Assembly: GCA_963775425.1 (NCBI GenBank)
Contig: CAVZJB010000004.1
Coordinates: 1 to 64,000 of the forward strand
DNA: 64,000 nucleotides
Reading direction: 5' to 3'
Origin: an uncultured delta proteobacterium
GTDB lineage: Bacteria > Myxococcota > UBA727 > VGSZ01
The first letter of the stretch is position 1, and each line of letters starts with the position of its first letter. A model generated the notes under the pieces. The model was not told the DNA's origin. It searched no databases and saw only the letters and a list, made by a program, of their open reading frames with translations. A program made the translations under genes and the position numbers. Positions 10,708 through 33,571 of the stretch are shown here, in pieces.

Positions 10708-12753
10708 CTACCGGGCGTACTTGTCCATCCAGGCAAAGACCTCTTCGTGCCATCGCTTGGAGTTCTGCGGCTTGAGCACCCAGTGGCTCTCGTCGGGGAA
10801 GTAGAGGAAGCGGCTGGCGATGCCCTTGCGCTGAAGCGCGGTGAACGTGCTCATGCCCTCGGTGTCCACCACGCGGTAGTCGTGGCCGCCGTGGATGACG
10901 AGCTCGGGCGTCTTCCAGTTCTTCACGTAGTTGATGGGGCTGTCCTTGGCGTAGCCCTGCGGGTTGTCCCAGGGCACGCCGCCGTGATCCCACTCCGGGA
11001 ACCACAGCTCCTCCGTGGCGAAGTAGGCCGCGGTCTCGTCGAGGTTGCCGTCGTGGCAGATGAGCGCCTTGAAACGATCGGTGTGGCCGTTGATCCAGTT
11101 GATCATGTAGCCGCCGAACGAAGCGCCGAGGGCCACCGCGCGCTTGCCGTCGAGCCACGGGTACTTCTGCAGCGCGAAGTCGAGGCCCTTCATGAGGTCC
11201 TCGTAGGGTGCGCCGCCCCAGTCGTGGTGGATGGCGTCGGTGAAGGCCTGGCCGTAGCCGGTGGACCCGTGGAAGTCGATGAAGACGACGCCGTAGCCGT
11301 GGCCCGCGTACACCTCGGGGTTCCAGCGGTAGTGGAAGTGGTCGCTGAAGCTGCCCTGCGGGCCGCCGTGGATGAGGAACGCCACCGGGGCCTTGCCCTT
11401 GGTGTAGCCCGCGGGCTTGATGGCGTAGCCGTAGACGGTGTCGCCGTGCGCGCCCTTGAAGCTGAACTGCTCGTACGCGCCCCACGCGATGTTCGCGTGG
11501 CGCGCGGCGTTCAGCGCGGTGACGGCCTTGACGTCGCTGCCGTCGGGCTTGGCCGTGTACAGCTCGGCCGGTGACACCAACGTGTCCCTGGCGAAGAGGA
11601 TGCGGCCGCCGGCGGGCTGCGGCGACTGCACGTTGCCCTTCATCACGAGGCCCGTGGCCTTGCCGCTGGCGGCGTCGACCGAGAACAGCGCGTGGTTGCC
11701 CATGTCGTCGGCGGTGGCCCACAGGCTCTTGCCGTCGGGGCTCCACCTGATCTCGCCCGGCGAGCGGTCCCACGCCTCGGTGAGCACGCGAACCTTGTGG
11801 CTGGCGACGTCGAGGAGCGCGATGCGCAGCCGGTCGCTCTCGTAGCGCGGGCGCTGCATCTGCAGGAACGCGAGGGTCTTTCCATCGGGGGAGAACGCCG
11901 GCGAGAACTCGTATGCCTTGTTCACCGTGGTCAGGTCGCGCGCGTTGCCCCTGCCGCTGGACGACGCGAGGAAGATGTCCGTGTTCGTGTTCCAGGCGAG
12001 CTCGCTGCCCTTGCCCACGCGCGCGACGAACGCGACCCACTTGCCGTCCGGAGAGATGGAGACCTCCTCCATGCCTCCCCAGGGGTGCGTCGGCGAGTCC
12101 GTGAGTTGGCCGCGCGTGAGGTCGACGGGCTTGTCGGGCGCGCCCGGGCTCCAGACGAACAGGTGCGAGTACTTGCCGTCTTCCCACTGGTCCCAATGGC
12201 GAAAGAGGAGCTGGTCGTAAGCGCGCGCCTTGACCTTGGAGGCTTCCTTCTCCTCGTCACGCTTCTTGGTGTCCTCGAGGGTCTTTGCGTCCGGGTAGAC
12301 GTCGATGGCGAGGACGAGGCGCTCACCGTCGGGGAAGAGCGAGAAGCCGTTGATGTCGAGCGGGAGCTTGGTGACCTCCTGCGCCTCGCTGCCGCCGACG
12401 GCGATCTTCCAGACCTGCGCGGAGCCCGAGCGCGACGACACGAAGAAGATCCACTTGCCGTCCGGAGAGAACACGGGGCTGTTGTCGTTCTCGGGGTTGG
12501 TGGTGAGGCGCTTGCTCCAGGAGCCGTCGGTGGCCGCGAGCCAGACGTCGGTGCGGCCGCGGTTGGCCTCGTAGTCGGTGTCGCGCACCGTGAAAGCGAC
12601 GAGCTTTCCGTCGGGGGAGACGGCGGGCTCGGAGACGCGCTGCATCGCGAGCATGTCGTCGATGGTGAGGCCGTGCTTGCCCTTGCCCTTGAGCGCGAAC
12701 GCCGGCGACGCGAAGAGGGCCACGAGGAGGATCGAGAGGAGGACGCGCTTCAT
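10708..12753 (-). CDS. S9-family peptidase (dipeptidyl-peptidase 5-like) with PD40 repeats
   Basis: Signal peptide, repeated SPDG motifs, IHGGPQ, GASFGG nucleophile, DYRV Asp, DESH His. Confidence 0.92.
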   Translation of the reverse strand: MKRVLLSILLVALFASPAFALKGKGKHGLTIDDMLAMQRVSEPAVSPDGKLVAFTVRDTDYEANRGRTDVWLAATDGSWSKRLTTNPENDNSPVFSPDGKWIFFVSSRSGSAQVWKIAVGGSEAQEVTKLPLDINGFSLFPDGERLVLAIDVYPDAKTLEDTKKRDEEKEASKVKARAYDQLLFRHWDQWEDGKYSHLFVWSPGAPDKPVDLTRGQLTDSPTHPWGGMEEVSISPDGKWVAFVARVGKGSELAWNTNTDIFLASSSGRGNARDLTTVNKAYEFSPAFSPDGKTLAFLQMQRPRYESDRLRIALLDVASHKVRVLTEAWDRSPGEIRWSPDGKSLWATADDMGNHALFSVDAASGKATGLVMKGNVQSPQPAGGRILFARDTLVSPAELYTAKPDGSDVKAVTALNAARHANIAWGAYEQFSFKGAHGDTVYGYAIKPAGYTKGKAPVAFLIHGGPQGSFSDHFHYRWNPEVYAGHGYGVVFIDFHGSTGYGQAFTDAIHHDWGGAPYEDLMKGLDFALQKYPWLDGKRAVALGASFGGYMINWINGHTDRFKALICHDGNLDETAAYFATEELWFPEWDHGGVPWDNPQGYAKDSPINYVKNWKTPELVIHGGHDYRVVDTEGMSTFTALQRKGIASRFLYFPDESHWVLKPQNSKRWHEEVFAWMDKYAR

Positions 12754-12862
12754 GGCGCCCGTGTCGACCGGCGCCTCGACGACGTCAACCTCCCTCGGGC
12801 CGCCGCCGCGGTCGTCGCTGCGGCGGCCGTCGGCGCGCGCGCGAGCGTGCTACCCTCGGTGC

Positions 12863-13609
12863 ATGCGCGTCACACCGTGGCTGCTCGCACTCTCGGCGCT
12901 GAGCTGCGCGCCGGCGGCGCCCGCGGACGTCGTGGTCCACTTGCCGTCCGGCGACTGCCGCGCCGGCGACGCGTGCGCGCTCGACTTCGGCGCGCTCTCC
13001 GCGCAGCAGATCATGGCGCTCGACGTCGAGGACGTCGGGGGAGGCGACGCCGCCCTCGGCGCAAGCGTCCGCGACGACGTGGGCGGCGGCGCGTTCGCCC
13101 TGCTGCAGGCGCCGGCGACGCCGCTTGCGCCGGGCGCGTTCACGCCGCTCGCGCTCGCCGCCGCCGCGCCGCCGGCGGGCGCGGCGGCCACGGGCGTGCT
13201 CGCGGTGGGTTGGTTGCCCGGCACCGGGCCGTTGCCCGAGGTGGGCGTGCCCGAGGACGCGCCGCACGAGATCCGCATTGCGCTCACCGCGACGGGCGCC
13301 GGCGAGGCAGGCGCCTGTCCCGCGCTCGCCCCCTGCACGCTGCCCGACACCCCGGTCGGTGCGAGCGCGTCCTGCGCCATCGAGCTGCACAACGACTCGG
13401 AGCGCGTACAGACCATCGACGACGTCAGCGTCGAAGGCGAGGGCTTCTCGACGAGCAGCCTCGTGCTCCCGAACCCGATCGCCCCGTTCACCGGCCTGGC
13501 CCTTATCGTCACGGCGACGCCCCCGGCGGCCGGCGAGCACAGCGCGACGGTGGCCGTCCGCTGCGGGACCGTCGTCGAAACGACCGTCATCACCGTGACG
13601 GGGACGTGA
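12863..13609 (+). CDS. Lipoprotein with Ig-like beta-sandwich domains
   Basis: MRVTPWLLALSALSC lipobox; LDFG and beta-strand pattern ending VTGT. Confidence 0.6.
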   Translation: MRVTPWLLALSALSCAPAAPADVVVHLPSGDCRAGDACALDFGALSAQQIMALDVEDVGGGDAALGASVRDDVGGGAFALLQAPATPLAPGAFTPLALAAAAPPAGAAATGVLAVGWLPGTGPLPEVGVPEDAPHEIRIALTATGAGEAGACPALAPCTLPDTPVGASASCAIELHNDSERVQTIDDVSVEGEGFSTSSLVLPNPIAPFTGLALIVTATPPAAGEHSATVAVRCGTVVETTVITVTGT

Positions 13610-13655
13610 TTCGTCGCCGGCAACGCGCGCCCACTGGGGCCCGCGTCGAGGCGAC

Positions 13656-16600
13656 TCAGAACAGCGTGAGCTGGCGCTTCTTCGGATCGCTCATGACGGG
13701 CTCAGCCCCGCCCGCCTCGTCCGTCGGCTGCGCGCTCGACACCGCAGGTGTCGTCGGTGGCGGCGTGGCTGCCGGCGCTGGCGACGCGGCGGCCGTCGCG
13801 GAAGGCGTCACGGGCGCCGCCGAGGCCGGCGTCGTCGTCGCCGCGGGCGCGGGAGTCGCCGACGCCGACGCGGAGGTCGACGCGGAGGCCGACGCAGAGG
13901 TCGACGCGGAGCTCAGCGAGCTCATCAAGGCCTCGAACGCGTCCTCGTCGATGATCTGAAGGGCCGCCCCGTCGGCGACGAGCTTCTCCGCGGCCTTCTG
14001 CTTGGTCGACGGCGACGCGCGATCGCTCGCGCCGATGACGAGGTACGTGAGCGCCTTGGTCACGCCCGAGGGCACCGCGGCCCCGAGCGCCTTCACCCGC
14101 GCCTCGGCGGCCTTGCGGTCGATCCTGAGCTTGCCGGTGAACACGAAGGACTTGCCGGCGAGCCCGCCCGTCGTCGACGACGGCGCCGCGCCAAGCTCGA
14201 GCAGCGCCTCGAGCGCGTCGAGCAGCGCCGCGTTTTCGCGCAGGCCTTCGACGATGGCGGCGGCGATGACCTCGCCGAAGCCCTTGATGGCCGACAGCTC
14301 CCCCGCCGTCACCGCGCGCACGCGCGCGAGGGTCTCGTAGCGCTCCGCCAGCGTGCGCGCCGCGGTCTTTCCGAGGCTCGCGATGCCGAGCGCGCGCAGG
14401 AGCACGTCGAGCGGCAGGCGCCGCGCGCGGTCGATCTCCGCCACGATCTTCTGGGCGTTCTTGTCGCCGCACTTCTCGAGCGCCGCGAGCTGGCCGGCGG
14501 ACAGGCCATACAGGTCAGCGGGCGTCGTCAGCAAACCCTTCTGCACCGCCTCCTCGACGACCACCTCGCCGAGCCCCTGGATATCCGCGGCCTCCGCGAA
14601 GTGCAGCAGCCGCCCCACGCGCGCGGCCACGCAGCTCTCAGGCTTGCTGCACAACAGAAAGTCGCCCTCTTCGACGACGGGAGCGCCACACGCCGGGCAC
14701 GTCGACGGCACCGGCACCGGCTCCGTCCCCGGTGACAACACACGCTCCACGTGGGGGATGACGCCGCCGCGGCGCACCATGGCGATGCTCGCGCCGATGG
14801 ACAAGCCGAGCTTCGCCAGGAAGCCCTTGTGGTGGAGCGTGGCTCTCCCCACCGTCACGCCCGAGAGCTGCACAGGCTCGACCAGCGCGACCGGCGTGAT
14901 GGTCCCCGTGCGCGCCACGGACCACTCCACGCCGCGCAGCACCGACGTCCCCTCTTCGCCCTGGAACTTCCACGCGAGCGCCCAGCGCGGGTGGTGCGCG
15001 GTGGCGCCGAGGCGCTTGTGGGCCGCGACGTCGTCGGCCATGAGCACCACGCCGTCGGTCTCGTAGCCGAGCTCCCCTCGCCGCGCAGACAGCTCGGCCA
15101 CCGCGTCCATCGCCTTGTTCACAGGCACGACGACGACGTCGATGGCGCGGAAGCCGGCGTCCTTCGCCAGCGCGAGCTTGTCGCGCTGACGGGTGAACGC
15201 CCCCGCGCCGTCGCCGCGCACGTCGTACGCGAGGAACGACAGCTCCATCCTGCGCGTGGCGTTCGGGTCCTTCTGGCGGAGCGCCCCGGCCGCCAGGTTG
15301 CGCGGGTTGGCGCCGCGCTCGCCGGCGGACCGGGCTTTATGCTTCTCGAAGACTCGAAGTGACATGAAGACCTCGCCGCGCACCTCGAGCGGGGCGCGCT
15401 CGGGGTCGATGCGCGCCGGGATGTCGGCCACGCCGCGGGCGTTGGGCGTGATGTCCTCGCCCTCCTCGCCGTCCCCGCGGGTGGCGGCCACTTCGAGGTT
15501 CCCGGAAGCGTCATAGCGTAGCGAGCACGCCAGGCCGTCGATCTTCGGCATGGCGAGGACGTCGTCGCAGCCGAGGTCTCCCGCCCACTTCTCGAGGTCG
15601 CTCTGCTCGTAGCACTTGTCGAGCGAGAGCATGGGCTCCCGGTGCTTCACCGCGGAGAACGCGTCGGGTCGCGCGCCCAGGTGCTTGAGCGCCCGCGACG
15701 ACGGGTCGCGCGCGGAGAGCGCCCGGCAGAGGCGGTCGAACTCGACGTCGGAGATGACCGGCGCAGCCAGCTCCCAATAGAGGCGGTTGTGGCGCTCGAC
15801 GAGCGCCTCGAGGTCGGCGGTGCCGAGGCCGTCGAGGTCGGGCAGCCGTTCGGCCGCTACGGGGTCCTCGTCGTCGTCGCCCTCGGGCGCGTCGGCGGCC
15901 GGGGTGTCGTCGGCGTCGGGCGTGTACTCCTCGGTGGAGTCGAGCTTGGTCACCGACGTGCTGGGCGCCCGCGGCTTGTCGACGTCGAAGAAGTCGAGCT
16001 TGCCCGGGAGTGACGGCTCGTCGGCCTTGCTGCTCTTGACGTCCCAGAGCTTTCGCGCGAGCGCGTCGAGGTCCTCGCTGCGCTCCACGCCCGAGACCCA
16101 CTCGGGCTTGATGCCGGCGACGCCGCCGAGCGCGCCGGCGATGGAGCCGGCGATGCACGCGATGGAGTCGGAGTCACCCGACGAGTTCGCCCCACGCAGG
16201 ACGCTCTCGGTGAAGTCGCCCTTGGCCTTGAGCACGCACCACAACGCGCACGCGACGGCCTCTTCGCCCACCCAGGCGCCGCCGAGGAACTGGCAGACGT
16301 CCTCGCTGTCGTCGCCGAGCGCAGCGGCGGTCTCGTCGAGCATCTCCATCTGCTCGCGGATGCCGATGGCGTCGATGTCGCTGTCCTTGGCCCCGAGGTC
16401 GCGCAGGATCTCGGGCGTGACGCGGGAGACCATCTCCTTGGTGTACTCGATGATGCCGTCGAGGCCGTTGCCCTTGAGCACCCACGCCACCGGCGCCGCC
16501 GCCGCCACCGACGACGCGATGCCCGTCGGGTGGCTGTGCGTGAGCACCGACTGCGCCGCCGCCACCCTCACGAGGGCCTCGTCGTCGTCGTAGAAGAACA

Positions 16601-17042
16601 AGCCCACGGGAGCCGCGCGCATGGCGGCGCCGCAGCCCTTGGACTCCTTGACGCCGGCGTCCCGCCACGAAGCGCCGCCCTTGAGCTTGCGGCAGCCGGC
16701 GAGGCACGTTCCGCCGGGGGCGCGGTTGTTGGTCGGGTGCTCGGCCCAGGCGACGAACTCCCGACCGAGGAGCGTCATCAGCGCGTCGAGCGCGAGGCCG
16801 CCGCCCGCGCGGACCGTGTTGCCGGCGCGAACGAGCGCCCGCGCCACGGCGATGCTCATCTGGGTGTCGTCGGTGAAGGTGCCGGGCTTGTGGACGCCGG
16901 AGGCCTGGAAGTCCGTGAGGCCCTGCTCACCGTACTTGGCGCGGATGCGCGGCACCGATGAGATGAACTCCGTGGGGTGGCCGAGCGCGTCGCCGACGGC
17001 GAGCCCGATGAAAGAGCCGCGAAACCTGTCCACCGTCTCCAT
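13656..17042 (-). CDS. ligA: ADP-ribosylglycohydrolase (DraG/ARH-family) fused to NAD+-dependent DNA ligase
   Basis: ARH motifs GDALG, TDDTQM, GAAMR, THSH, GDSDS; ligase motifs MLSLDK, KIDG, RGEV, NPRNLAAG, DGVV, WKF, RTGTITP, C4 zinc finger, HhH repeats, BRCT (GKSFVFTG). Single frame; ATG 17042 has a GGAGG RBS. Confidence 0.92.
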   Translation of the reverse strand: METVDRFRGSFIGLAVGDALGHPTEFISSVPRIRAKYGEQGLTDFQASGVHKPGTFTDDTQMSIAVARALVRAGNTVRAGGGLALDALMTLLGREFVAWAEHPTNNRAPGGTCLAGCRKLKGGASWRDAGVKESKGCGAAMRAAPVGLFFYDDDEALVRVAAAQSVLTHSHPTGIASSVAAAAPVAWVLKGNGLDGIIEYTKEMVSRVTPEILRDLGAKDSDIDAIGIREQMEMLDETAAALGDDSEDVCQFLGGAWVGEEAVACALWCVLKAKGDFTESVLRGANSSGDSDSIACIAGSIAGALGGVAGIKPEWVSGVERSEDLDALARKLWDVKSSKADEPSLPGKLDFFDVDKPRAPSTSVTKLDSTEEYTPDADDTPAADAPEGDDDEDPVAAERLPDLDGLGTADLEALVERHNRLYWELAAPVISDVEFDRLCRALSARDPSSRALKHLGARPDAFSAVKHREPMLSLDKCYEQSDLEKWAGDLGCDDVLAMPKIDGLACSLRYDASGNLEVAATRGDGEEGEDITPNARGVADIPARIDPERAPLEVRGEVFMSLRVFEKHKARSAGERGANPRNLAAGALRQKDPNATRRMELSFLAYDVRGDGAGAFTRQRDKLALAKDAGFRAIDVVVVPVNKAMDAVAELSARRGELGYETDGVVLMADDVAAHKRLGATAHHPRWALAWKFQGEEGTSVLRGVEWSVARTGTITPVALVEPVQLSGVTVGRATLHHKGFLAKLGLSIGASIAMVRRGGVIPHVERVLSPGTEPVPVPSTCPACGAPVVEEGDFLLCSKPESCVAARVGRLLHFAEAADIQGLGEVVVEEAVQKGLLTTPADLYGLSAGQLAALEKCGDKNAQKIVAEIDRARRLPLDVLLRALGIASLGKTAARTLAERYETLARVRAVTAGELSAIKGFGEVIAAAIVEGLRENAALLDALEALLELGAAPSSTTGGLAGKSFVFTGKLRIDRKAAEARVKALGAAVPSGVTKALTYLVIGASDRASPSTKQKAAEKLVADGAALQIIDEDAFEALMSSLSSASTSASASASTSASASATPAPAATTTPASAAPVTPSATAAASPAPAATPPPTTPAVSSAQPTDEAGGAEPVMSDPKKRQLTLF

Positions 17043-17084: not shown

Positions 17085-18491
17085 TCAACCTCGGGCCAAC
17101 GCACGCTGCAAGAGCAAGCCGAGCGCGGCGCCGCGCCGCGGGTCGACCATCTTCACCCAGGCGACCTTGCCCGCGAGGTGCGCGGCGAAGTCGGGGTGGT
17201 TGTCGCGGTTTTGCGCGGCCATGCCGGTCCTGGCGCAGTTGTGCAGGATGGCGCGCAGCCGCCGCACCTCGCGCCGGTCGACGGCCGGCTTGTCGTTGAC
17301 GACGACGCCCGTGACCTCCTGGCGGCGGCCGCGTCGCATGACGCGCGTCTTGTCCGCGTTCAGCACGAAGCCCTCGGCCTCGAGCACGCTGCGCGCGCAG
17401 CCGAGGACATGCGTGGTCTGGGCAGGGTCTTCACCGGAGAACGTGAGGTCGTCGGCGTAGCGCGTGTACGTCCAACCCGTGCTCTTCGCGAGCCCCGCGA
17501 GGCGCCGGTCGAGCTTCCCACACAGGACGTTGGTGATCGCCGGCGAGGTGCACGCGCCCTGCGGCAACTGCCGATCGCCGAGGGCGATGTAGAGCTTCTT
17601 TCCGTCGAGCTCGACCTCGGCGCGCGGCGGCTCCGTGCACAGGAGCGCGAGCACCGTGGCGACGCTCTCGGAGTAGCCGACCTTGACGAACAGGCCCTTC
17701 ACGCGGCGGAAGGTGATGGTGGGGAAGAAGTCCTTGAGATCGAGGTTCACCACCACCGGCTTGTGCACGTGCGGCCGCGCGTTGGTCACGACGCTTCGTT
17801 GAACGACGAAACCATGCGCGTGCTCGTCGACGCCGAGCTTGCTCAGGACGCGCTCGAGCACCCAGCGCTGCGCGCCGGCCAGCTTCTTCTTGGGCGCGGA
17901 GATGGCGCGAACGCCGCCGGTCTTCTTGGGCACGCCCCAGCGGTGGTAGTGCACGAGGGCCGCGCCCCGGCGGTGGTACGAGAGCCAGCGCAACTGCGAC
18001 AGCGGAACGCCCATGGCGAGCGCGAGCTCCGGCGCCGTGGACACCACCGGCAGCCCCGCGGCTTCGAGCTTCTGGACGTCGCTGGTGCGCCCCTCGAGGC
18101 CGCCGCTGACGCCGGCGCCGAGGTGGACGGCGTCCGCGTGCTTCTTCCTGGTCCAGCTCTCGCGGCGCTCGCGCGCGGTCTTTTCGCGGAGGACCTTCTT
18201 CTCCGCGCGCTTCTTGCGGGACTCCTGGGTGCGCCGCTCGTTCTCCGCCTTGAGCGCCGCCTCGGGGTCCTGCACCGCGAGCGCCGTGTGCATGAGCTTG
18301 TCGCGCTCGGCCTCGAGCTGCTTACGCGCCTTCTGCTCGTCCGCCGGGTCCTCGGGGAGGCCGACGCCGTGGGGCCAGAACCCGTTCACGCGCATGCGCT
18401 CGAGCACGATCCACTCGGGCCTGCCCGCGATGGAGTCCCACAGCTTCTGTTTCTCGCTCTTGGGTTTCTGGCTCGAGGTCACGGGAGGCAC
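17085..18491 (-). CDS. Retron-type reverse transcriptase with charged N-terminal extension
   Basis: DLKDFFPTI, LPQGACTSP, YADD, retron region X (NARPH = NAxxH) and region Y (VTG). Confidence 0.93.
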   Translation of the reverse strand: MPPVTSSQKPKSEKQKLWDSIAGRPEWIVLERMRVNGFWPHGVGLPEDPADEQKARKQLEAERDKLMHTALAVQDPEAALKAENERRTQESRKKRAEKKVLREKTARERRESWTRKKHADAVHLGAGVSGGLEGRTSDVQKLEAAGLPVVSTAPELALAMGVPLSQLRWLSYHRRGAALVHYHRWGVPKKTGGVRAISAPKKKLAGAQRWVLERVLSKLGVDEHAHGFVVQRSVVTNARPHVHKPVVVNLDLKDFFPTITFRRVKGLFVKVGYSESVATVLALLCTEPPRAEVELDGKKLYIALGDRQLPQGACTSPAITNVLCGKLDRRLAGLAKSTGWTYTRYADDLTFSGEDPAQTTHVLGCARSVLEAEGFVLNADKTRVMRRGRRQEVTGVVVNDKPAVDRREVRRLRAILHNCARTGMAAQNRDNHPDFAAHLAGKVAWVKMVDPRRGAALGLLLQRALARG

Positions 18492-18569
18492 TCCGAAGCG
18501 GGGACAAGCCCCGCGCTACCGGGGGAGACGAGCGCGCGGGCTGCGGGACGAGCCCGCGTACGGGACGAG

Positions 18570-18816
18570 GCGGGGGAAGACGGAACGAGCAGCAGCGCCT
18601 CTACGAACGCTCTTGGACGTGCTCGTTCCACTAAAGCGCCCGTCGGGGATGGCAAAAGCGCGCGAGTCGCGGCGCGACTCATACAGCTGCGCGCTGCCAT
18701 CCCTGACGGGCGCGGGTGAAGAACGGGCGCGTGACGAATGTCGGGCATCCGGGCATGTACGGCGTAACACCGCACGGTTGCTAGATCGCGACGCGCTGAT
18801 CGTTCCGTCTCCCCGC
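18570..18816 (-). ncRNA. Retron msr/msd non-coding RNA
   Basis: Inverted repeats 18570-18588 and 18800-18816 (11-bp perfect core agacggaacga/tcgttccgtct); long hairpin 18636-18713; short msr-like stems; ORF-poor gap directly upstream of the RT. Confidence 0.8.
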
Positions 18817-18851
18817 GACTCGTGGACCTGACCGCGGTTTTCCTGACGGCG

Positions 18852-20549
18852 TCAATGAACCTTGATGTCCTCCTGTTCGAGCTTGTCCATGTGGGCGAGC
18901 CGAAGCGCGAGCAGATGCTCACACGGGCCCTGGGTCAACTGGTTGCTCTTGAAATGCTTGCAGGTGCAGTTGCCCTCGATGATGGCGCCGGCGACGTCGA
19001 CGTGGAGCTGCGGCCGCACCCGGTCGCCCTTGGTGCCGAGCACCGAGCCCGAGAGCTTGAACCCCGTCTGCACGGGGCGGCGCGCGATGATGCGCACGTT
19101 GTCGCTCTTGAAGATGATGCGCGCGGCCTTGGCGAAGGGGTTCTGCTCTTCGACCACCTCGCTCACCGCCTGCTGGGCTTCCTTCATGGTGAAGGAGTCG
19201 AAGAACAGGTCCCTGTGGCGCCAGACGCCCGCGCCGATGTCGAACATGGCGCGCCCGACCTGACACAGATACGACAGCGCGCTCCGCGTCTTTTCGATGC
19301 CGAGCCCGCTCTTGGCCGCGACGTCGACGTCGGTGGCGAAGCGCACCTGTTTGAGCGCGTCGTACGCGTGCATCAGGTCCGCGGGCGTACCGTCGAGCCG
19401 ACGGGTGAGCAGGTCGAACTTGGCGCCGCCGGCCCAGTCGTTGTCCGTCCAGCCCGAGAGCGCCAGCGTGAACGTGGTGTCTCCGAGGTCGACGTCGTAG
19501 ATGGACGGCATCCCGAGCCCGGCCACGAACACGCGCACCTTGCGCGCCACGGGCAACAGGCGAGACAGCGTCTTCAAGCGGTCGCGGCCCCAGGTGCGCA
19601 CGATGGTGTCCGGGCCGTCCCAGACCGTGCCGATCTCGACGGGGTACTCCCACGGCTCGAGCACCGCCCGCACGCGCCGGCCCTTCACGAGCTCCCAGCG
19701 CAGCGCCCGCGGCGACGTGCGCGTCTTCTTCCTGCGCAGGAAGCGGATGATGTTGAACAGATCGATGGGCGCCACCTCGAACGAGGTGAGGCCCATGGCC
19801 ATGGTGGATTGCACCTGATGGAAGCCGCGCACCCAGCTCTCGGGCAGCTCGATCTTCTTCTCCTTGTGCACGCCGCCGCCGGGGCCGCTCGTGGTCACCG
19901 TGAGGCCGCCGGGCGCGATGTCGAGGTCGGTCTTCCGATAGGTGCGGATGCGATCGAGCTGGCGCGCGAGCGCGTGCGAGAAGTCGATGTTGGTGGTGCC
20001 GCACTGGAACTGGTCGACGCGCGAAAACAGCGAGCGCCTGGCGCCGAGCCTCGCATAGGAGGATTCGTCCTTGCTGAACGCCTCGAAGAACACCTCGTCG
20101 GGGTGAACGGTGATGACGGGGTCGAAGAGGTAGTTGAGCTCGTACTGGTGCTCGTAGACGTACTCGAAGTAGCGGTGGCGCGCGGCGTAGAAGGGCTTCC
20201 TGCGCTGCGCGCGCAGCTTGTCGAGCTCCGCGAGCTTCTGCTCCACGCGCTCGAGCTCCTCCTTGGCCTGCACCGACTTCGCCTTCAACGACATCAGGAA
20301 CTTGCGGTCCTGGTCGGCGAGCCAGGTCTGGAACGCGACGCGGTCCTTGGCCTTGTACCGGAAGTCGCTGATGACGACGTGGTGGAGCGCGCCGAGCGCC
20401 TCGCGAAACACGAGCGGCCGCTGCAGCTCCGCCTTGAAGTACGTGGCCTCACGCAGCGTGTTGGTGGCGAAGCCCACCTTGCCCGTGGTGAGCCCCTGCT
20501 CCACCCCGGAGGCGCCGTCGTAGCTCGTCTTCAAGGTGTGGCCGCTCAT
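18852..20549 (-). CDS. SWIM zinc-finger protein (retron-associated)
   Basis: C-terminal CTC...PCEH (CxC-xn-CxH); start MSGHTLK overlaps the upstream stop (ATGA). Confidence 0.85.
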   Translation of the reverse strand: MSGHTLKTSYDGASGVEQGLTTGKVGFATNTLREATYFKAELQRPLVFREALGALHHVVISDFRYKAKDRVAFQTWLADQDRKFLMSLKAKSVQAKEELERVEQKLAELDKLRAQRRKPFYAARHRYFEYVYEHQYELNYLFDPVITVHPDEVFFEAFSKDESSYARLGARRSLFSRVDQFQCGTTNIDFSHALARQLDRIRTYRKTDLDIAPGGLTVTTSGPGGGVHKEKKIELPESWVRGFHQVQSTMAMGLTSFEVAPIDLFNIIRFLRRKKTRTSPRALRWELVKGRRVRAVLEPWEYPVEIGTVWDGPDTIVRTWGRDRLKTLSRLLPVARKVRVFVAGLGMPSIYDVDLGDTTFTLALSGWTDNDWAGGAKFDLLTRRLDGTPADLMHAYDALKQVRFATDVDVAAKSGLGIEKTRSALSYLCQVGRAMFDIGAGVWRHRDLFFDSFTMKEAQQAVSEVVEEQNPFAKAARIIFKSDNVRIIARRPVQTGFKLSGSVLGTKGDRVRPQLHVDVAGAIIEGNCTCKHFKSNQLTQGPCEHLLALRLAHMDKLEQEDIKVH

Positions 20550-23176
20550 GCGGCCTCCTTGACGACGAGGTGCGGCACCTCGACGGACGGGAAGGCCAGC
20601 TTGATCTTCACCAGCGCCTCGAGCGCGCGCTCGCGGTCGTCGACGCACTGGGTGCGCACGAAGTCCGAGAGGACCTGCGCCGCCACCCCGGCCTGGTTCT
20701 CGTCCTGCTGCCCGCGCTCCCCGAGGAACGCGATGACCGTGCGCTTCACCTGACGCTCGGGCCACACATCGAAGAGCGCCGCGCGGAACAGCAGCTCGAG
20801 CTTGGCGAGCCGCACGAAGCCGGGCTTCAGGTGCTTGACGGCCATGTCCACCGCGTACCTGCGGGTCACCGGCGACGGGTGCTGCCCGAGCCGCGCCAGC
20901 AGCTCGTGCACGTCGACGGCCTCGGCGGCGATGGCGCGCTCGAGGATCTCGTGTGCCTTCTTCTGGACGTCGACGCGGGTGGAGTCGGCGAGGCCCATGA
21001 GCCCGTCGAGGCCGAGCGGCAGGAGGTCGACGCCGTCGATGAGCTTCAACGCCTCCGCGCGCACGTCGTCCCAATCGCTCTCGACGAGCCCGAACAGCAC
21101 CGAAGGATCGCGCTGGAGCTCGGCGCGGGCGCTCTCGAGGAGCGTCATGGCCGCCCGGCGCACGGCGGCCTTTTCGTGTGTGGCGAGCGCGAGCACCTGG
21201 GAGAGGCCGAGCACGTCGTACGCGCCTGGCTTCTTGGCGAGGATGGACGCGCCGACGGCGATGGCGGAGTCGCTCTCGGCGCCGACGAGCGCGATGGCGC
21301 GGGAGATGGGGCACGCCGCGGCGGCCTCGTCGAGGAGCCCCTCGCGAAGGACCGCGGCGAAGCCGGAGAACGCGCTCTCCTCGGGCTCCTTGTGCTCGAC
21401 GCGGTCGAGCAGCTCGCCCGCGAGGCGGCGGCGCTCGTCGGCCTCCAGCATCTTGACGGAGAGGTTCACGAGGCGGGCGGCGGCGTCGCGCGAGGCCGGT
21501 TGCGGCATCGAGAGGAAGCGGAGGATCCACTCGCGCCGCCGGGTCCACACGTGCGCGCTCTCGTTGAGCCACACGAGGCCGTGGTTGCGTACGAGGTCCT
21601 TCTGCGAGCCGGCGAGCTCGAGGACGAGGTCGAGGTCGGGCTGGTTGGGATCGAAGCGCCGACGCAGCTCCGTGAGGCCGAGGTCGACGATGCGCGCGTC
21701 GTCGCTGTCGAGGAGCGCCGCCACGTCGGCGTGCGTCGCCGCCTGCAGGGCCTCGGGGTGGCGCGTGACGCCTTCGAGGGCGAAGCGCTGCACGAGCGAG
21801 TGCCGCGCGCCGCCGAGGAGCCGCACGAACGCGCGCGGCGTGCGGTCCCAGAGCTCGGCGTAGGGCGCGTCCCCTCCAGACGACGGCGCGAGCGCGGGCG
21901 CGGCGCCCTTCAGCTTGGGCTTGTTCTTGAACCGCATCTGGCGGCCGTCGAACGTGTACTTGTTCGACGCGCCGAACAGCACGCGGTGCAGCATGTAGCT
22001 GCGGCCCGTGGCGGGCGAGTTTCCCTTGATGACGTCGTCACCGTCCTTGTAGTGGACGACGGCCTCGGCCGCGGCGAGCGCGTACTCCTCGGGGCGGTGC
22101 TTGGCCAACCGGCGCAGCCAGCGCCAGGCGCGGCGGCGCACGTAGTCGACGGTGGAGCGGGAGAAGACGCGGGTCTTCTTGGTCTCGCCGTCGTAGCCGC
22201 TCTTGAGCGTGGCAGTGTGGGCCTTCTGTGTGCGGGCCGCGATCTCGATGCAGTAGGAGAGCAGCCCGAACGTGGCGTAGTCGCGCCGCACCTGCGCGCG
22301 CTTCCACACGCTCTTGGTGTAGCGCCAGGTGTACGGCTGGTGCAGCGCGGCCGTCGTCAACATCGCCAGCGCCGCCTCGACGCACGGCGAGCGCGCCGCG
22401 AGCGCGCCGATGTCGACGGGGGACGGCGGCTTGCCCGCCGCGGCGTCGACGGTGCCTGCTGGGCCCGGCAGGGCGAGGAAGGTCTGCACGGCGCCGAGCT
22501 CGTAGAGGGTGTCGGCCGTGATGCCGCGGTCGCGGGCGTCCACGCCGGCGGTCGCGTTGATGATCGTCGACGCCGCCGCCGTCACCGCCGACCGCACGGC
22601 GTCGGGCAACCGCTGCACCGCGCGGTCGCGCGCCCCCTCGAGCGCCTCCCGCAGCGTGACGTCCCCGGGCGCGCGCGCGCCGATCTGCAAGAGCGCCTCG
22701 ACGCCCGCACGCCGGCGCGACAGCAGCTTGCGCTCGGCCTCCGCGCGCACCGCGGGCAGCGCGCGCACGTCGCCGAGAGCGCCGAGCGCGTCGACGACGC
22801 TCGAGACGTCGTCCTTGGGCTTGTCGAGGAGCTGCAAGAGCGGCTCGACCGCCGACGCCTCCCCGCGCCAGCCGATGCGCCGCTCCGCTCTCGCCCGCGT
22901 GCGCGGGTTCTTCTCCTTTAGCGCGAGCAGCAGTTGGCCGAGACCGCCGGCGACGTAGCCCTCGCCGAAGAGGCCGTCGACGATGGACTTGTGCGCGAGC
23001 GCGACCTCTTCGGCCGAGAACGGCCCGAACATCCGGGCGTCGGTGAGCGCGGTCCGCTTCTTTCCCCGTGCGACCTGCACCATGAAGGCGCCGGGCTGCC
23101 CGCTGGCGGGCTCCACGGTCACGAGCGCGATGCGCTCGGGCCTGGAGGGGTGAAAGAGGCGGACGGGATCGATCAT
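20546..23176 (-). CDS. HEAT/ARM-repeat protein with degenerate N-terminal WGR-like domain
   Basis: Repeats such as ALGALGDVRALP, VRRAA, DDVRAEA; N-terminal FMVQVARGK...EGY; ATGA overlaps on both sides. Confidence 0.8.
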   Translation of the reverse strand: MIDPVRLFHPSRPERIALVTVEPASGQPGAFMVQVARGKKRTALTDARMFGPFSAEEVALAHKSIVDGLFGEGYVAGGLGQLLLALKEKNPRTRARAERRIGWRGEASAVEPLLQLLDKPKDDVSSVVDALGALGDVRALPAVRAEAERKLLSRRRAGVEALLQIGARAPGDVTLREALEGARDRAVQRLPDAVRSAVTAAASTIINATAGVDARDRGITADTLYELGAVQTFLALPGPAGTVDAAAGKPPSPVDIGALAARSPCVEAALAMLTTAALHQPYTWRYTKSVWKRAQVRRDYATFGLLSYCIEIAARTQKAHTATLKSGYDGETKKTRVFSRSTVDYVRRRAWRWLRRLAKHRPEEYALAAAEAVVHYKDGDDVIKGNSPATGRSYMLHRVLFGASNKYTFDGRQMRFKNKPKLKGAAPALAPSSGGDAPYAELWDRTPRAFVRLLGGARHSLVQRFALEGVTRHPEALQAATHADVAALLDSDDARIVDLGLTELRRRFDPNQPDLDLVLELAGSQKDLVRNHGLVWLNESAHVWTRRREWILRFLSMPQPASRDAAARLVNLSVKMLEADERRRLAGELLDRVEHKEPEESAFSGFAAVLREGLLDEAAAACPISRAIALVGAESDSAIAVGASILAKKPGAYDVLGLSQVLALATHEKAAVRRAAMTLLESARAELQRDPSVLFGLVESDWDDVRAEALKLIDGVDLLPLGLDGLMGLADSTRVDVQKKAHEILERAIAAEAVDVHELLARLGQHPSPVTRRYAVDMAVKHLKPGFVRLAKLELLFRAALFDVWPERQVKRTVIAFLGERGQQDENQAGVAAQVLSDFVRTQCVDDRERALEALVKIKLAFPSVEVPHLVVKEAA

Positions 23177-23895
23177 TCTTCGTCGTCGAAGTCGTCCGCG
23201 TCGTCGTCCGACAGCGGCGTGGGCGCGGGCGCGTTGATGGCGGCGGTGGCGGCGGCGATCTTCTGCTTGCCGGCGTCGCTCTTCATGGTGTCGCCGAACT
23301 CACCGAGGTCGCCGAGGATCTCTTCGAGCGCTTTGCGCATCTCGGCGTAGTCCGTGAACTCCTTCTCGCGGAACAGGTTGTAGGCCGTCCACATCAGGTC
23401 CGCGCAGATCTCCACCGGCGTCTTGCCCGTGGCCGCGCCGAGGCCCGGCAGCGCCACCGAGCGGATCTGCCCGCCGTGCTGCGCGTTGTACATGTGCACC
23501 GCCTGAAACGCCGCACAGCACGCGAGCGCGACGTTGAGCGTGTTGCTGACGTCGTCACTGGAGCCCATCATGGTGGGCGTGGAGATCAGGAAGCGCGGCA
23601 TATCCGCACCCGTCTCCACGCACGTGGCCGTACCGACCTTCATGGTGCCGCCGTAGAGGCTCTTCACCTCGGCCTGCACCTTCTTTTCAATCTGCACGCC
23701 GAGCTGCCGCTTGATGACGGCGTCGAGCCCGCCGTCCATGGACGCCTTGGCGTTGGTGGGCGTCACCCACGCGCCCACCTGCTGCTCGAGCATGGAGCCC
23801 TGGATGATGTCCACCTCGGGGTTCTCTTCGAACGTCTCGCGCCAGGCCGCGATCATCTTCGGGTTGATGTCCACCAACGCCACACGCACCAACAT
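23173..23895 (-). CDS. Macrodomain (Appr-1''-p processing) protein
   Basis: VTPTNA.ASMDGGLD, ISTPTM and VALPGLGAATG macrodomain motifs; AAGGAG RBS; acidic tail. Confidence 0.85.
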   Translation of the reverse strand: MLVRVALVDINPKMIAAWRETFEENPEVDIIQGSMLEQQVGAWVTPTNAKASMDGGLDAVIKRQLGVQIEKKVQAEVKSLYGGTMKVGTATCVETGADMPRFLISTPTMMGSSDDVSNTLNVALACCAAFQAVHMYNAQHGGQIRSVALPGLGAATGKTPVEICADLMWTAYNLFREKEFTDYAEMRKALEEILGDLGEFGDTMKSDAGKQKIAAATAAINAPAPTPLSDDDADDFDDEE

Positions 23896-23907: not shown

Positions 23908-25326
23908 CTACGCCTTGAACTCGACGAGATACTCGAGGCGCTGCTGGTTCTGCCGATAGATCACGTACTCGTCGTCCTCGAACTGCGACGGCAGGCCCTT
24001 GCGGTTGCGCAGGCCGTGGCACGAGTCGTAGCCGGGCGGCGGCTCGTTCAAGCCGTACGTGATCTTGGTGAACTCCTTCATGTTGCCGAGCCCCACGCGG
24101 GCGATGGCCATGAAGCGCGTCCGCTTGCTCCCCGGCGTCGTGTAGAACGCCGACGTGCACGACGCGTCGCCGAAGTAGATGCCGTTGCCGAGCCAGCCGG
24201 CGTCGGTGCGGTTCACGCCCATCGACACCACGATCTTCGGCATCAGGATCCCGCGCGACAGGATGCCCACCCAGTTCTTGATGCGCGAGCCGTGGAACAT
24301 CATCTTCTCGTTGCCGACCTTGGTGTCGAACGCGTCCCACTCCGCGGGGCGCTTCAGCTTGAAGACGTTCAGCACCTTGATGTTCTTCGACTTCACCTGG
24401 TGGCCGACGACGTAGTCGGCCCACTCGTCGCGCTCGGCCTTGCCGCACTCGACGAGCTCGCAGCCGAGCGCCTTGTACTGGTCGTCCACCTGGTTGTTGA
24501 ACAAGACGGAGCCCTGCTCGCCGTTCACCGCGAGCATGTCCTTCATGAGCTGAAGCGTCTCCTGCTTGGCCGCGATCTCGGCGAGGGTGTCGATGACGGC
24601 GGCGGCGATGGCGTCACGCGTGCGGCCGATGCGGTGCGGGACGGCGGTGTAGAAGTCACCGGACAGGTCCTCGAGGCGCGACTTGGACGCGCTCTTCTTC
24701 ACCGCGTCGTTGATCTCCTCGAGGATCTCCTCGCCCTTCTCCACCTGCCCGACGGTGAGCACGCCGAGCGGCGTCTCGATGCCGTTGGCGGTGATCTTGG
24801 CGGCGACGGTGGTGGTGAGCGCGTTGGTGGCCTCGGCATAGATGTACTTGACGAGCTCCTGGACGCCGCCGGGCAGCGCGCTCGGCGCCGACGCCTTGGG
24901 CGCGGCGGCCTTTTCGTCGGGGGCCATCTTGGCCACGGTCTTGTCGTCGACGTGGCCCGACGAGCTCCCGCGCGCCTTCTGCGAGCCGATCTTCGACGAC
25001 GCCAGCGCCACCTCCTTGTAGCCCTTGGAGCGGCCGGTCTTCTCCCGATAGATGCGGTCGTACTCGGCCTGCGCGGCGGCGAGGTGGGCGAAGTAGCGCG
25101 ACTCCTTGGCGCCCGCGTTGGGGTCGTGCTCGAGGTCGTCGGTGCGGCCGTAGTGCGTGAACACGCGGAAGCTGGCGCCGGCGGAGTGCAGCTCGATGCC
25201 GTAGTACTTGTTGTTGTTGTTCTTGATGTCGGTGACCTGAAGCACGGCGCGCTTCACGATCTCGAAGTCATCCGGGAACGACGGCTGCGCCGGATCGTTG
25301 ATTCGCCACGCTTTCGCTCCCGCCAT
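23908..25326 (-). CDS. PARP-like ADP-ribosyltransferase (WGR - regulatory helical - catalytic)
   Basis: NNNKYY..HYGR (WGR), LSGDFYTAVPH (regulatory domain), FHGS / GIYFG / DEYVIY (H-Y-E triad); ATG 25326 with GAGGAGG RBS. Confidence 0.92.
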   Translation of the reverse strand: MAGAKAWRINDPAQPSFPDDFEIVKRAVLQVTDIKNNNNKYYGIELHSAGASFRVFTHYGRTDDLEHDPNAGAKESRYFAHLAAAQAEYDRIYREKTGRSKGYKEVALASSKIGSQKARGSSSGHVDDKTVAKMAPDEKAAAPKASAPSALPGGVQELVKYIYAEATNALTTTVAAKITANGIETPLGVLTVGQVEKGEEILEEINDAVKKSASKSRLEDLSGDFYTAVPHRIGRTRDAIAAAVIDTLAEIAAKQETLQLMKDMLAVNGEQGSVLFNNQVDDQYKALGCELVECGKAERDEWADYVVGHQVKSKNIKVLNVFKLKRPAEWDAFDTKVGNEKMMFHGSRIKNWVGILSRGILMPKIVVSMGVNRTDAGWLGNGIYFGDASCTSAFYTTPGSKRTRFMAIARVGLGNMKEFTKITYGLNEPPPGYDSCHGLRNRKGLPSQFEDDEYVIYRQNQQRLEYLVEFKA

Positions 25327-25441: not shown

Positions 25442-25966
25442 TCAGGAGAAGACGGCGGGGAGGAACCAGCGGGCGTGGGTCAGGCCGGCGATGGTCTTGG
25501 CGTCGTGGATCTCGCCGTTGGCGACCATGCGCATGCAGTCGTCGTAGCGGAACGCCCTCACGTCGGTGATCACCTCATCCTCGTCCGGCTTCTTCTTCGC
25601 GGGCGACAGCTCGCGAGCGATGAAGATGTGGATCTTCTCGTCGCAGAAGCCGGGCGTGGTGAAGATGAAGCCCGCGTGCTCGAGGCGGCCGGCCTCGACG
25701 CCGGCCTCCTCGACGAGCTCGCGGCGCGCACACTGCTCCGGCGTCTCGCCCGCGTTCAGCGTGCCGGCCGGGCACTCCCACAGCCAACCGCCTGCGCAGT
25801 GGCGCCACTGCTTGATGAGCGTGACGCGGTCGCGGTCCATCGGCACGATGAGCGAGGCGCCGGGGTGCTTGATGACGTCGAGCGTGACCGTCAGCCCTGA
25901 CGGCAACGTCACCTCCTCGGTGCCGACGTCGATGACCCGTCCTTGAAAGATGTGCTTGCGTGTCAT
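25442..25966 (-). CDS. Nudix hydrolase, ADP-ribose pyrophosphatase (NudF)-like
   Basis: Nudix box GTLNAGETPEQCARRELVEEAG, HPGA, TPGFCDE, IHDAKT; start MTRKH overlaps the upstream stop. Confidence 0.88.
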   Translation of the reverse strand: MTRKHIFQGRVIDVGTEEVTLPSGLTVTLDVIKHPGASLIVPMDRDRVTLIKQWRHCAGGWLWECPAGTLNAGETPEQCARRELVEEAGVEAGRLEHAGFIFTTPGFCDEKIHIFIARELSPAKKKPDEDEVITDVRAFRYDDCMRMVANGEIHDAKTIAGLTHARWFLPAVFS

Positions 25967-26439
25967 CCGCAGAGCTCCCCCATTTCCTCGAGGCCGACCA
26001 CCGTACCCACGAAAGGCGCCTCCATGTCGACGAAGCGCATCAGGTTCATTCCCGTGCCGATGATCGGCCACGCCGGGTGCGGCGCCGTGAGCATGTGCGA
26101 GCGATCGGACGCGAACGTCTCGACGTAGGTGGCGGCGTCGACGACGCGGAAGCGGGGTGGCTCGGCCAGGGGCGGGAAGCTCTCGTCGAGCCACGTGCGC
26201 GCGGGCACGGGAAAGCCGAGCGTGGTGTCGAGATCCCACACGACGCCGGGCGTGATGAGGACGACGTGGTAGTCCCAGAAGATCACCCCGCCCCGCCCCG
26301 CCTGCTGGTGGCGCATCGCCACCCGCCGCGCCGGGTTGGACACGAAGACCACGCGCCGTCTCTCCTTCGGCACCCGGACGGAGGCGTCCTGGCACAGGTG
26401 CCACACGTTCTCCTCGCAGAAACAGGCGCAGTAGCGCAT
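25963..26439 (-). CDS. Protein N-terminal glutamine amidohydrolase (NTAQ1)-like
   Basis: CEENVW, WDYHV, DLDT, FASDRSHM motifs (Cys-His-Asp triad); GGAGGAG RBS. Confidence 0.8.
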   Translation of the reverse strand: MRYCACFCEENVWHLCQDASVRVPKERRRVVFVSNPARRVAMRHQQAGRGGVIFWDYHVVLITPGVVWDLDTTLGFPVPARTWLDESFPPLAEPPRFRVVDAATYVETFASDRSHMLTAPHPAWPIIGTGMNLMRFVDMEAPFVGTVVGLEEMGELCG

Positions 26440-26471
26440 CGCTCCTCCATTCTGGTGTAAACCAGGGGTTC

Positions 26472-32554: not shown

Positions 32555-32558
<4 letters not shown>
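30105..32558 (-). CDS. 7TM-HD phosphohydrolase (PgpH-like, HDIG family)
   Basis: APGTWHHS, YHDVGK, ENQ, HV.DG, EHH, MLADQVEAA; multiple TM helices; phoH-HD-ybeY synteny. Confidence 0.88.

Positions 32559-33571
<1,013 letters not shown>

Follow-up and report, generated by a model that had tools for sequence, protein, structure and literature searches.

Mx162 and Mx65 were the first retrons to be found. Under the names Retron-Mxa1 and Retron-Mxa2 they are grouped with Nex2 and Sau1 as type XIII retrons, which are defined by a reverse transcriptase (RT), a SWIM protein and a HEAT/ARM protein that may carry a WGR-like domain (Mestre et al. 2020, PMC7736814); the main text of that study, in the part available to us, uses none of the terms "ligase", "ADP-ribos" and "NAD". 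Here we describe a locus that, judged by its RT, RNA, SWIM and HEAT/ARM components, appears to be a type XIII retron with four added enzyme genes. It lies in positions 1..64,000 of contig CAVZJB010000004.1 (assembly GCA_963775425.1); this whole stretch of 64,000 nt is called the window below, and its genome is G000 in our counts. The last gene of the locus codes for ARH-LigA, in which an ADP-ribosylglycohydrolase (ARH) domain is joined to an NAD+-dependent DNA ligase (LigA). We propose that the locus is a PARP-armed type XIII retron and that ARH-LigA, tethered to the sliding clamp, would be its arm for taking off ADP-ribose and resealing DNA, a reading that we regard, taken as a whole, as evenly poised between right and wrong.

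The window resembles the described type XIII retrons in its RT profile, in an msr/msd RNA with a1/a2 arms and a long msd hairpin, and in SWIM and HEAT/ARM genes placed in the usual order upstream of the RT; it differs from them in that the cluster adds WGR-PARP, Macro, NUDIX and ARH(-LigA). Furthermore, the WGR-like domain of canonical members is fused to the HEAT/ARM protein, whereas in the window the WGR domain is on the PARP and the HEAT/ARM protein matches WGR_XIII in part. With the ARH/DraG family (ARH1, ARH3, DraG, Tri1 and MJ1187) the fusion shares PF03747 over its whole length and the conserved acidic motifs, but the domain is followed by a conserved L-D-F-F peptide and has a ligase fused or adjacent to it. 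Like Escherichia coli LigA (2OWO), the fusion has the full set of domains (Ia-NTase-OB-Zn-HhH-BRCT), to which are added the N-terminal ARH domain, an acidic linker and a low-complexity tail with Q-L-T-L-F, and it has Met in motif IV.

DNA terminal phosphates are ADP-ribosylated by PARP3 and by PARP1 E998Q, and the ADP-ribose is removed from DNA ends by PARG, MacroD2, TARG1 and ARH3 and not by ARH1 or ARH2, according to the available part of PMC5725667. The initial annotation of the ARH-LigA gene had assumed as background that PARPs modify DNA terminal phosphates and that ARH3 and macrodomains reverse this, in agreement with that paper. Bacterial PARPs have been noted in members of the Deltaproteobacteria (PMC8120803, PMC5966428), and HaPARP requires DNA for its activation (PMC8120803). 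In the portions of these two papers at hand, neither a reverse transcriptase nor a DNA ligase is mentioned; in PMC8120803 the word "retron" is also absent, and the five occurrences of "ligase" there concern RNA, lipoate and ubiquitin ligases. A literature search that did not extend to supplementary cluster tables retrieved no work linking retrons with PARP, Macro, ARH or LigA, and we have not found an ARH-LigA fusion at the end of a retron and PARP-type operon described.

The ARH-LigA protein

The minus strand holds an uninterrupted frame from 13656 to 17054 (1132 aa). The probable start, an ATG at 17042 with GGAGG 7 nt upstream, gives a product of 1128 aa, which is also the length of database entry P0001, and the resulting span, 13656..17042, equals that of the initial annotation. 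The N-terminal part matched PF03747 (ADP_ribosyl_GH) with 238.4 bits, compared with a gathering score of 26.2, over profile positions 1-286 of 287, and its motifs GDALG, HPTEF, FTDDTQM, GCGAAMR and GDSDSIA are conserved in 50-51 of 52 fusion rows (FTDDTQM in 50 and GDSDSIA in 51, both aligned to MJ1187 and ARH1). We take the acidic motifs of the TDD and DSDS type to be metal sites, as in the structures of ARH3 and DraG. A linker with a net charge of -18 (residues 341-412) leads to the ligase module, for which Pfam gave DNA_ligase_aden (3e-59), OB (5.4e-20), HHH_2 (6.3e-11) and BRCT (4.4e-5). The NCBIfam LigA model TIGR00575 matched residues 415-1025 of the 1132-aa frame with 508.2 bits against a cut-off of 444.45 (510.5 bits in the genome-wide search), and the module aligned to E. 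coli LigA 2OWO over 605 residues (2.8e-96). In the alignment with the E. coli enzyme, motifs I (PKIDGLA), III (EVRGEVF) and V (RWALAWKF) are present and the four zinc-finger cysteines (CPAC ... LC ... SC) coincide. Of the 52 fusion rows, every one has motifs I and III and 51 have motif V, and KxDG, RGDG, EVRGE, NPRN, AWKF, Cys4 and BRCT are likewise conserved among these rows. The domain Ia residues aligned to what we take to be the NMN-binding Y22, H23, D32, Y35 and D36 of E. coli are Y, W, D, F and D, so that W and F stand where positions 23 and 35 of the E. coli enzyme are H and Y; the W is common to the housekeeping LigAs of the window's family, many of which also have F at the fourth position. 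The initial annotation had described an intact ARH/DraG-type domain joined through an acidic linker to a full LigA; the open frame, the Pfam matches and the TIGR00575 match bear this out, and all of the motifs that it named (TDD, DSDS, KIDG, zinc finger, OB, HhH and BRCT) were found.

The nearest relatives of the ARH domain by sequence are MJ1187, ARH1, DraG and Tri1 (1e-20 to 1e-23), and ARH3 follows at only 1e-11. Because the domain falls below the cut-offs of both the DraG and the Tri1 equivalog models of NCBIfam, it is neither of these enzymes. An AF2 model (pTM 0.85) has ARH1 and ARH3 as its nearest folds, with TM scores of 0.77-0.79 and 0.68-0.72, respectively, upon superposition. An attempt to assign the substrate by fold search was dropped, since ARH1 and ARH3 were about equally close.

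When the ARH part alone was used as a query against proteins of 622-1981 aa, both domains were present in 45 clusters among the 120 matches listed, with ARH parts 56-76% identical. Most of the 45 clusters are metagenomic, and their source names read "DNA ligase (NAD+)" or "ADP-ribosylglycohydrolase family protein". Among 401 genomes of the phylum, ten (G000 included) carry an ARH at least 63% identical; in seven of these the open frame exceeds 1000 aa, and in three it is cut by contig ends; the tally of 37 out of 401 in the ARH genome search includes an unpublished genome (G195), on which no other result rests. Since the two-domain architecture recurs in 45 clusters and in other genomes, chance or misassembly is excluded as the source of the fusion, and what the initial annotation had seen in a single gene is a recurrent arrangement. 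One read set (0.17 of words shared) yielded two 151-nt pieces with 99-100% identity, which lie inside the ARH domain; none spans 15813-16019.

The genome of the window has a separate LigA of normal size (C11:263511-265292; 657-aa frame, 490 bits), and so do all seven of the other fusion-bearing genomes searched (G026, G084, G069, G131, G137, G309 and G129), as expected from the earlier suggestion that ARH-LigA is a second ligase beside the housekeeping one. We built a 59-row tree of the ligase region, leaving out P0004, P0019, P0020 and P0043 because of their short length. The 48 fusion rows stand together on one side of a branch with an SH-aLRT of 97, and their sister group consists of the housekeeping LigAs found in the window's family itself. 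G309 belongs to another family: its fusion ligase clusters with those of the window's family, and its housekeeping LigA is placed far away. The tree fits a duplication in one lineage followed by horizontal spread. ARH-LigA is a genuine single protein and a probable paralogue of the organism's own type of LigA. As separate observations, the housekeeping LigAs at L002, L050, L054, L055, L057, L058, L062, L063 and L065, all from the window's family, are without the four zinc-finger cysteines, which are kept in the fusion paralogue and in the canonical housekeeping LigA of G309; and G309 (L037/L125; 18960-19898 of L037) has a third LigA gene, a 659-aa frame on a long branch, convergent to its ARH-LigA fusion.

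Operon context and clamp-type peptide

The ARH-LigA gene is preceded on one strand by genes for an Nt-Gln-amidase-like protein, NUDIX, WGR-PARP, Macro, HEAT/ARM and SWIM, the msr/msd RNA and the RT, in this order, a retron/PARP operon context that the initial annotation did not include. Among 63 PADLOC RT profiles RT_XIII was the best for the window RT, the matches to NCBIfam retron RTs being partial, and 42 nt separate the RT from ARH-LigA. The SWIM-RT spacer (360 nt, non-coding) holds inverted a1/a2 arms at 18795-18823 and 18565-18593 (29 nt, 86% complementary), an msr hairpin at 18757-18775 and a long msd hairpin at about 18617-18732. RNAalifold analysis of the SWIM-RT spacers of seven loci gave 62 pairs, 30 of them with compensatory changes, and a conserved core common to the 7 loci; on this covariation the retron RNA is real. 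No Rfam family matched between 12000 and 24000 at E<=1, the retron RNA included. The HEAT/ARM protein covers positions 243-536 of the 973 of the WGR_XIII model only. Macro and HEAT, and likewise HEAT and SWIM, overlap by 4 nt. Scans of 12500-28000 found no promoter-like sites and 15 terminator-like sites (5.9 expected), none of which is positioned to mark the ends of an operon.

The ADP-ribosylation genes of the cluster were compared with known structures. The PARP is nearest to PARP4 in the PDB (4.2e-47), then to PARP2 and PARP1, and its H-Y-E triad aligns to that of PARP4. The Macro protein had no match in the PDB by sequence; the best Foldseek matches of its model were the yeast ADP-ribose-1''-monophosphatase Ymx7, MacroD2 and YmdB, and the protein is thus modelled as MacroD/Poa1-like and not PARG-like. 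The NUDIX protein matched NudE of NCBIfam at 8.9e-21, which is under the cut-off, and its gene is kept upstream of the PARP gene in G084, G026, G069 and G125.

A role of the ligase in joining or circularising msDNA was considered and dropped, because the 5' end of msDNA is held in a 2'-5' branch and because the ARH+LigA pair is also found without a retron. Elsewhere in the same genome (contig 18, L046, 17-10675) we noted a second, canonical type XIII retron with a HEAT-ARM_XIII frame of about 2300 aa, SWIM_XIII and RT_XIII, followed by a Ser/Thr-kinase-like gene matching the PD-T4-6 and mad6 profiles; there is no PARP, Macro or ARH at that locus.

The RT is directly upstream of the ARH gene, on the same strand, in eight of the nine other genomes that have an ARH at least 63% identical, G129 being the exception; in G125 only the last 34 residues of the RT are visible at a contig end. 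The full order NUDIX-PARP-Macro-HEAT-SWIM-RT-ARH-LigA was found in G084, G026 and G069, G309 has the same order without NUDIX, and the pieces of the cluster in G125 and G151 agree with it. A scan with the ARH alignment, taking one genome per species, gave 80 loci, 32 of them with at least 50% ARH identity. Thirteen of the 32 have an RT directly upstream of the ARH; seven are in genomes already counted and six are new (L070, L073, L077, L078, L080 and L084), and the four new loci with enough flank (L077, L078, L080 and L084) show the whole PARP-Macro-HEAT-SWIM-RT-ARH order. The retron-linked ARH is without LigA in L070, L073, L077 and L078, and L080 has ARH and LigA as adjacent genes. RT orthologues (at least 54% identity) and PARP orthologues (at least 62%) are each present in 12 of the 401 genomes and both in 11, and some type XIII-like RT is present in 133. 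Some of the bins with RT-ARH are labelled Holophagales, Thermoanaerobaculia or Acidobacteria, which reflects either horizontal transfer out of Myxococcota or mis-binning. L070, L073, L077 and L078, whose retron-linked ARHs are 64-66% identical, are in bins so labelled.

A different ARH takes part in similar clusters. G086 has the order PARP-Macro-HEAT-SWIM-RT-ARH with an ARH-only gene, and in G212 and G196 a divergently oriented ARH lies beside PARP-Macro-HEAT-SWIM. In an ARH tree of 58 rows, from which L088, L098 and L113 (internal stops) and matches shorter than 250 aa had been dropped, the window ARH belongs to a clade of 31 rows (SH-aLRT 96), and the ARHs of G086, G212 and G196 group apart from it in a clade of their own (support 100). 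Two ARH lineages would therefore serve the same system, arguing that ARH activity is needed by it. Stand-alone ARHs 45-50% identical also occur in another family (for example G305, G234 and G317), with type XIII-like RTs on other contigs.

The C-terminus of ARH-LigA points to the replication clamp. A Q[LMVF]x[LM]F sequence is present at the very C-terminus in 37 of the 45 fusion clusters, with near variants in three more; among the five clusters that lack it, three are truncated entries, and P0019 lacks part of the ligase region. The same ending was seen in none of 75 other ARH proteins and in none of 11 non-fused LigAs. Q-L-T-L-F fits what we take to be the consensus of the beta-clamp-binding pentapeptide, Q-L-[SD]-L-F. 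A complex was modelled from the DnaN dimer of the window's own genome and the last 44 residues of ARH-LigA. It scored 0.63 (best control, 0.14), a mark attained by 58 of 80 solved complexes and by 2 of 110 mismatched pairs; runs agreed in at least 48% of contacts, and the partner pLDDT was at least 43. The modelled contacts join tail residues 1120 and 1123-1128 to clamp residues 177-182, 256, 261 and 374-379. This pass may reflect likeness to clamp-peptide complexes already solved. We propose from the model and the motif that ARH-LigA is tethered to the DNA sliding clamp by its C-terminal Q-L-x-L-F. The ARH-adjacent sole LigAs of Polyangiales share a Q-M-x-L-F end, and the clamp peptide is therefore ancestral to this type of ligase. 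An LDFF-like peptide follows the ARH domain in 43 of the 45 fusion clusters and is near the C-terminus in ARH-only relatives; that L-D-F-F also binds the clamp is a guess.

Proposed mechanism and competing explanations

In PARP1-3, WGR and a helical regulatory domain couple the binding of DNA breaks to catalysis. One could envisage the retron complex as a sensor, and a trigger such as phage infection would then lead to DNA ends or nicks, which the SWIM nuclease-like protein would make or msDNA would expose. These ends or nicks would switch on the WGR-PARP, which would spend NAD+ on ADP-ribosylating DNA ends and/or DNA-bound proteins, and replication would be blocked. Macro, ARH and NUDIX would serve in the erasure and recycling of the ADP-ribose mark, and ARH-LigA, acting on clamps left at nicks, would strip ADP-ribose and reseal the DNA, so that self-damage would be limited or recovery allowed.

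We think it quite probable that ARH-LigA is a working part of a retron-PARP system. We are more hesitant about its reaction, the removal of ADP-ribose at DNA followed by sealing of the nick, for which we would put the chances slightly below even. The initial annotation had proposed the uncapping and sealing of ADP-ribosylated ends from the fusion, and this is made more plausible by the WGR-PARP, Macro and NUDIX genes of the cluster together with the clamp-type C-terminal motif. The most far-reaching version, which we offer as a rather unlikely one, is that a break-sensing PARP reads the DNA product of the retron or a damage signal, as a bacterial counterpart, turned to defence, of nick repair by PARP1-3, erasers and a BRCT ligase; msDNA or SWIM-made nicks would gate the WGR-PARP, DNA-end ADP-ribosylation and the drain of NAD+ would arrest replication, and the clamp-tethered ARH-LigA would uncap and seal within one polypeptide. 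If true, a PARP-gated retron of this kind would be the first natural setting that selects PARP-type DNA-end ADP-ribosylation together with its repair.

Several results weigh against the proposed mechanism. The lysine of ligase motif IV (D-G-x-x-x-K), presumably K290 of E. coli, is Met in the window (TDGVVLMAD), and 38 of the 45 fusion clusters have V, M, L, I, T, W or S in its place. The lysine is kept in six of the 45, which are deep-branching (P0033, P0037-P0040 and P0042). It is also present in ten of 11 non-fused LigAs and eight of nine ARH-adjacent LigAs, with Arg in the one exception of each set (L087 in the second). We assume from mutagenesis of E. coli LigA that this lysine is important for catalysis, a point on which the literature search found nothing relevant. 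Since the lysine is lost in most fusion clusters, the ligase chemistry of the retron-linked form may be altered. The ARH sequence, in turn, is closer to ARH1, DraG and MJ1187 than to ARH3, and in the part of PMC5725667 at hand ARH1 was inactive on ADP-ribosylated DNA ends.

The arrangement of the genes raises further objections. ARH and LigA are adjacent, separate genes in nine loci with no retron or PARP (L079, L081, L083, L085, L086, L087, L089, L094 and L095), and the ARH-adjacent LigA is the sole LigA in four of the five such genomes tested. The pair thus has a function independent of the retron, and the pairing is older and wider than its link to the retron. In the loci of Polyangiales type (L079, L081, L083, L085, L086, L089, L094 and L095), ARH is directly before a LigA ending in Q-M-x-L-F. 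The modules of the cluster itself are separable. G129, in which searches found neither a PARP (E<=1e-20) nor an RT (E<=1e-10), keeps Nt-amidase-NUDIX-ARH|LigA, split over two contig ends; G120 has PARP-Macro and lacks the block from HEAT to ARH-LigA; and in G196 and G212 the orthologous RT is away from PARP-Macro-HEAT-SWIM. Within the window's family, one chromosomal position flanked by Nt-amidase/NUDIX and an S9 peptidase holds the full set, only NUDIX-ARH|LigA (G129) or only PARP-Macro (G120). Finally, related genomes are not independent, and the loci come from perhaps 5-7 lineages.

The alternative that survives best, although we consider it improbable, is that the ARH acts on proteins or on poly(ADP-ribose) (PAR) as a stand-in for PARG, the usual companion of bacterial PARPs; it would trim PAR or clear automodified PARP, clamp or ligase, and ligation would be switched back on after PARP signalling. 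The cluster has no visible PARG-type protein, its sole macrodomain being MacroD/Poa1-like, and ARH1, DraG and Tri1, to which the ARH domain is closest in sequence, remove ADP-ribose from proteins. In the available parts of the literature, moreover, bacterial PARPs PARylate and PARG reverses this (PMC8120803), ARH3 hydrolyses PAR and serine-ADP-ribose, and ARH1 is specific for arginine (PMC5725667). However, the ARH is covalently fused to a DNA ligase or tightly adjacent to one, and this, with the clamp-type peptides, points to DNA. This alternative differs from the uncapping of DNA in the substrate only, and no result separates the two.

Marginally less probable still is that ARH-LigA is an autonomous, clamp-tethered replication or repair ligase module that in this lineage came to lie next to a retron-PARP island and is functionally uncoupled from it. 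The nine retron-free loci, the use of the pair's LigA as sole ligase with a Q-M-x-L-F end, the survival of NUDIX-ARH|LigA in G129 and the finding of different contents between the same flanks in relatives are all in accord with such a module. A chance neighbour would less readily account for the adjacency of RT and ARH, with the same strand and a small gap held down to 54% RT identity, or for its survival of an apparent horizontal transfer into another family (G309); nor would it account for the unrelated ARH lineage that occupies the same position in G086 and adjoins the PARP in G212 and G196, or for the ARH-only versions behind the RT in L070, L073, L077 and L078. That the retron-linked ligase module is unproductive, acting as a sensor of NAD+ and nicks or as an abortive adenylyltransferase, and hence as a defence effector or switch rather than a repair enzyme, appears very unlikely: although the motif IV lysine is replaced mainly in the fusions and all fusion genomes searched have another LigA, the other catalytic and DNA-binding motifs, Cys4, HhH, BRCT and the clamp peptide are all conserved across the clade, as one would expect of a functional DNA enzyme under selection.

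Features, neighbours and relation to known systems

Table 1. Features of the retron-PARP-ARH-LigA cluster in the window.
Feature	Coordinates	Strand	Remarks
ARH-LigA fusion gene	13656..17042	minus	1128 aa plus stop; last gene of co-directional cluster
ARH/DraG-type ADP-ribosylglycohydrolase domain	16020..17042	minus	residues 1-341; PF03747 1.6e-70
Acidic linker	15813..16019	minus	carries L-D-F-F peptide at 15987..15998 (residues 349-352)
NAD+-dependent DNA ligase module	13926..15812	minus	Ia, adenylation (K500 in PKIDG), OB, Cys4 zinc finger, HhH, BRCT
Ala/Ser/Pro/Thr-rich tail	13659..13925	minus	ends Q-L-T-L-F (13659..13673), beta-clamp-binding-type motif
Type XIII retron reverse transcriptase	17085..18491	minus	PADLOC RT_XIII 1.9e-167; RVT_1 1.4e-18
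Retron msr/msd non-coding RNA	18565..18823	minus	29-nt inverted repeat; RNAalifold covariation
SWIM zinc-finger protein	18852..20549	minus	PADLOC SWIM_XIII 4.6e-174; accessory of type XIII retrons
HEAT/ARM-repeat protein	20546..23176	minus	WGR_XIII 1e-92, HEAT-ARM_XIII 3.2e-52, Pfam HEAT_2; accessory of type XIII retrons
Macro-domain protein, MacroD/Poa1-like	23173..23895	minus	Pfam Macro 8.3e-9; AF2 pTM 0.78
WGR - PARP regulatory - PARP catalytic protein (bacterial PARP)	23908..25326	minus	PARP 3.8e-30, PARP_reg 1.3e-18, WGR 6.3e-10
NUDIX hydrolase, NudE / ADP-ribose pyrophosphatase-like	25442..25966	minus	Pfam NUDIX 2.1e-19; only in window's own family of genomes
N-terminal-glutamine-amidase-like gene	25966..26469	minus	Nt_Gln_amidase 4.1e-39; peripheral, membership uncertain

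The Nt-amidase gene is directly upstream of NUDIX, as it is in L035, L036, L038 and L040. Beyond the cluster, the window contains two ordinary-looking neighbours on the minus strand, a PD40/S9 prolyl-oligopeptidase-family protein (10708..12753) and a 7TM receptor with an HD hydrolase domain (30108..32663). Between the S9 peptidase and ARH-LigA, a 343-aa plus-strand frame (12578..13606), convergent to ARH-LigA, shows a codon bias like that of a gene (GC3 0.94) and matches no Pfam family; alternative frames of the peptidase region overlap with it, and only its first 35 or so residues recur, in two relatives. The neighbouring window proteins that were scanned matched no further defence-system profile. 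A second ADP-ribosylation locus was found on contig 6 of the same genome (L045, about 7800-11950 of the locus), where two tandem PARP-like genes, 23-26% identical to the window PARP, adjoin a divergently oriented ARH.

The function of type XIII retrons gains concrete enzymatic handles from a PARP writer, two erasers, a NUDIX protein and a ligase. The descriptions of DNA-end ADP-ribosylation by PARPs have to date all been in vitro (PMC5725667), and one operon with a break-sensor PARP and an eraser fused to a ligase makes the role of bacterial PARPs and of DNA-end ADP-ribosylation directly testable. Where ARH stands beside the only LigA, as in some Polyangiales, removal of ADP-ribose may be linked to the routine sealing of nicks throughout a bacterial group.

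The window PARP has the WGR-PARP_reg-PARP_cat arrangement of the bacterial PARPs of Herpetosiphon aurantiacus and Clostridioides difficile, as these are given in the portions of PMC8120803 and PMC5966428 at hand. Unlike those systems, the window has Macro and ARH rather than PARG as erasers, and its PARP is within a retron operon. DarTG, a DNA ADP-ribosyltransferase toxin with a macrodomain or NADAR antitoxin, is similar, to the extent covered by our sources, in that a writer and an eraser of ADP-ribosylation, possibly of DNA, are encoded together in a defence setting; however, the writer of the window is of PARP type and not DarT, DarG macrodomains stand low among the fold matches of the Macro protein (ranks 36 and 48), and DarTG has neither ligase nor retron. 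In domain content alone, the window also resembles the eukaryotic single-strand break module (PARP1/2/3, PARG/ARH3/MacroD2/TARG1 and XRCC1-Lig3), since both have a break-sensing PARP, erasers and a BRCT ligase. The authors of PMC5725667, in the part available, raised the hypothesis that an eraser restores a ligatable 5'-phosphate. In contrast to the eukaryotic module, the window has eraser and ligase in one NAD+-dependent polypeptide, the system includes DNA made by an RT, and the tether that we propose is the beta clamp instead of PAR-binding scaffolds.

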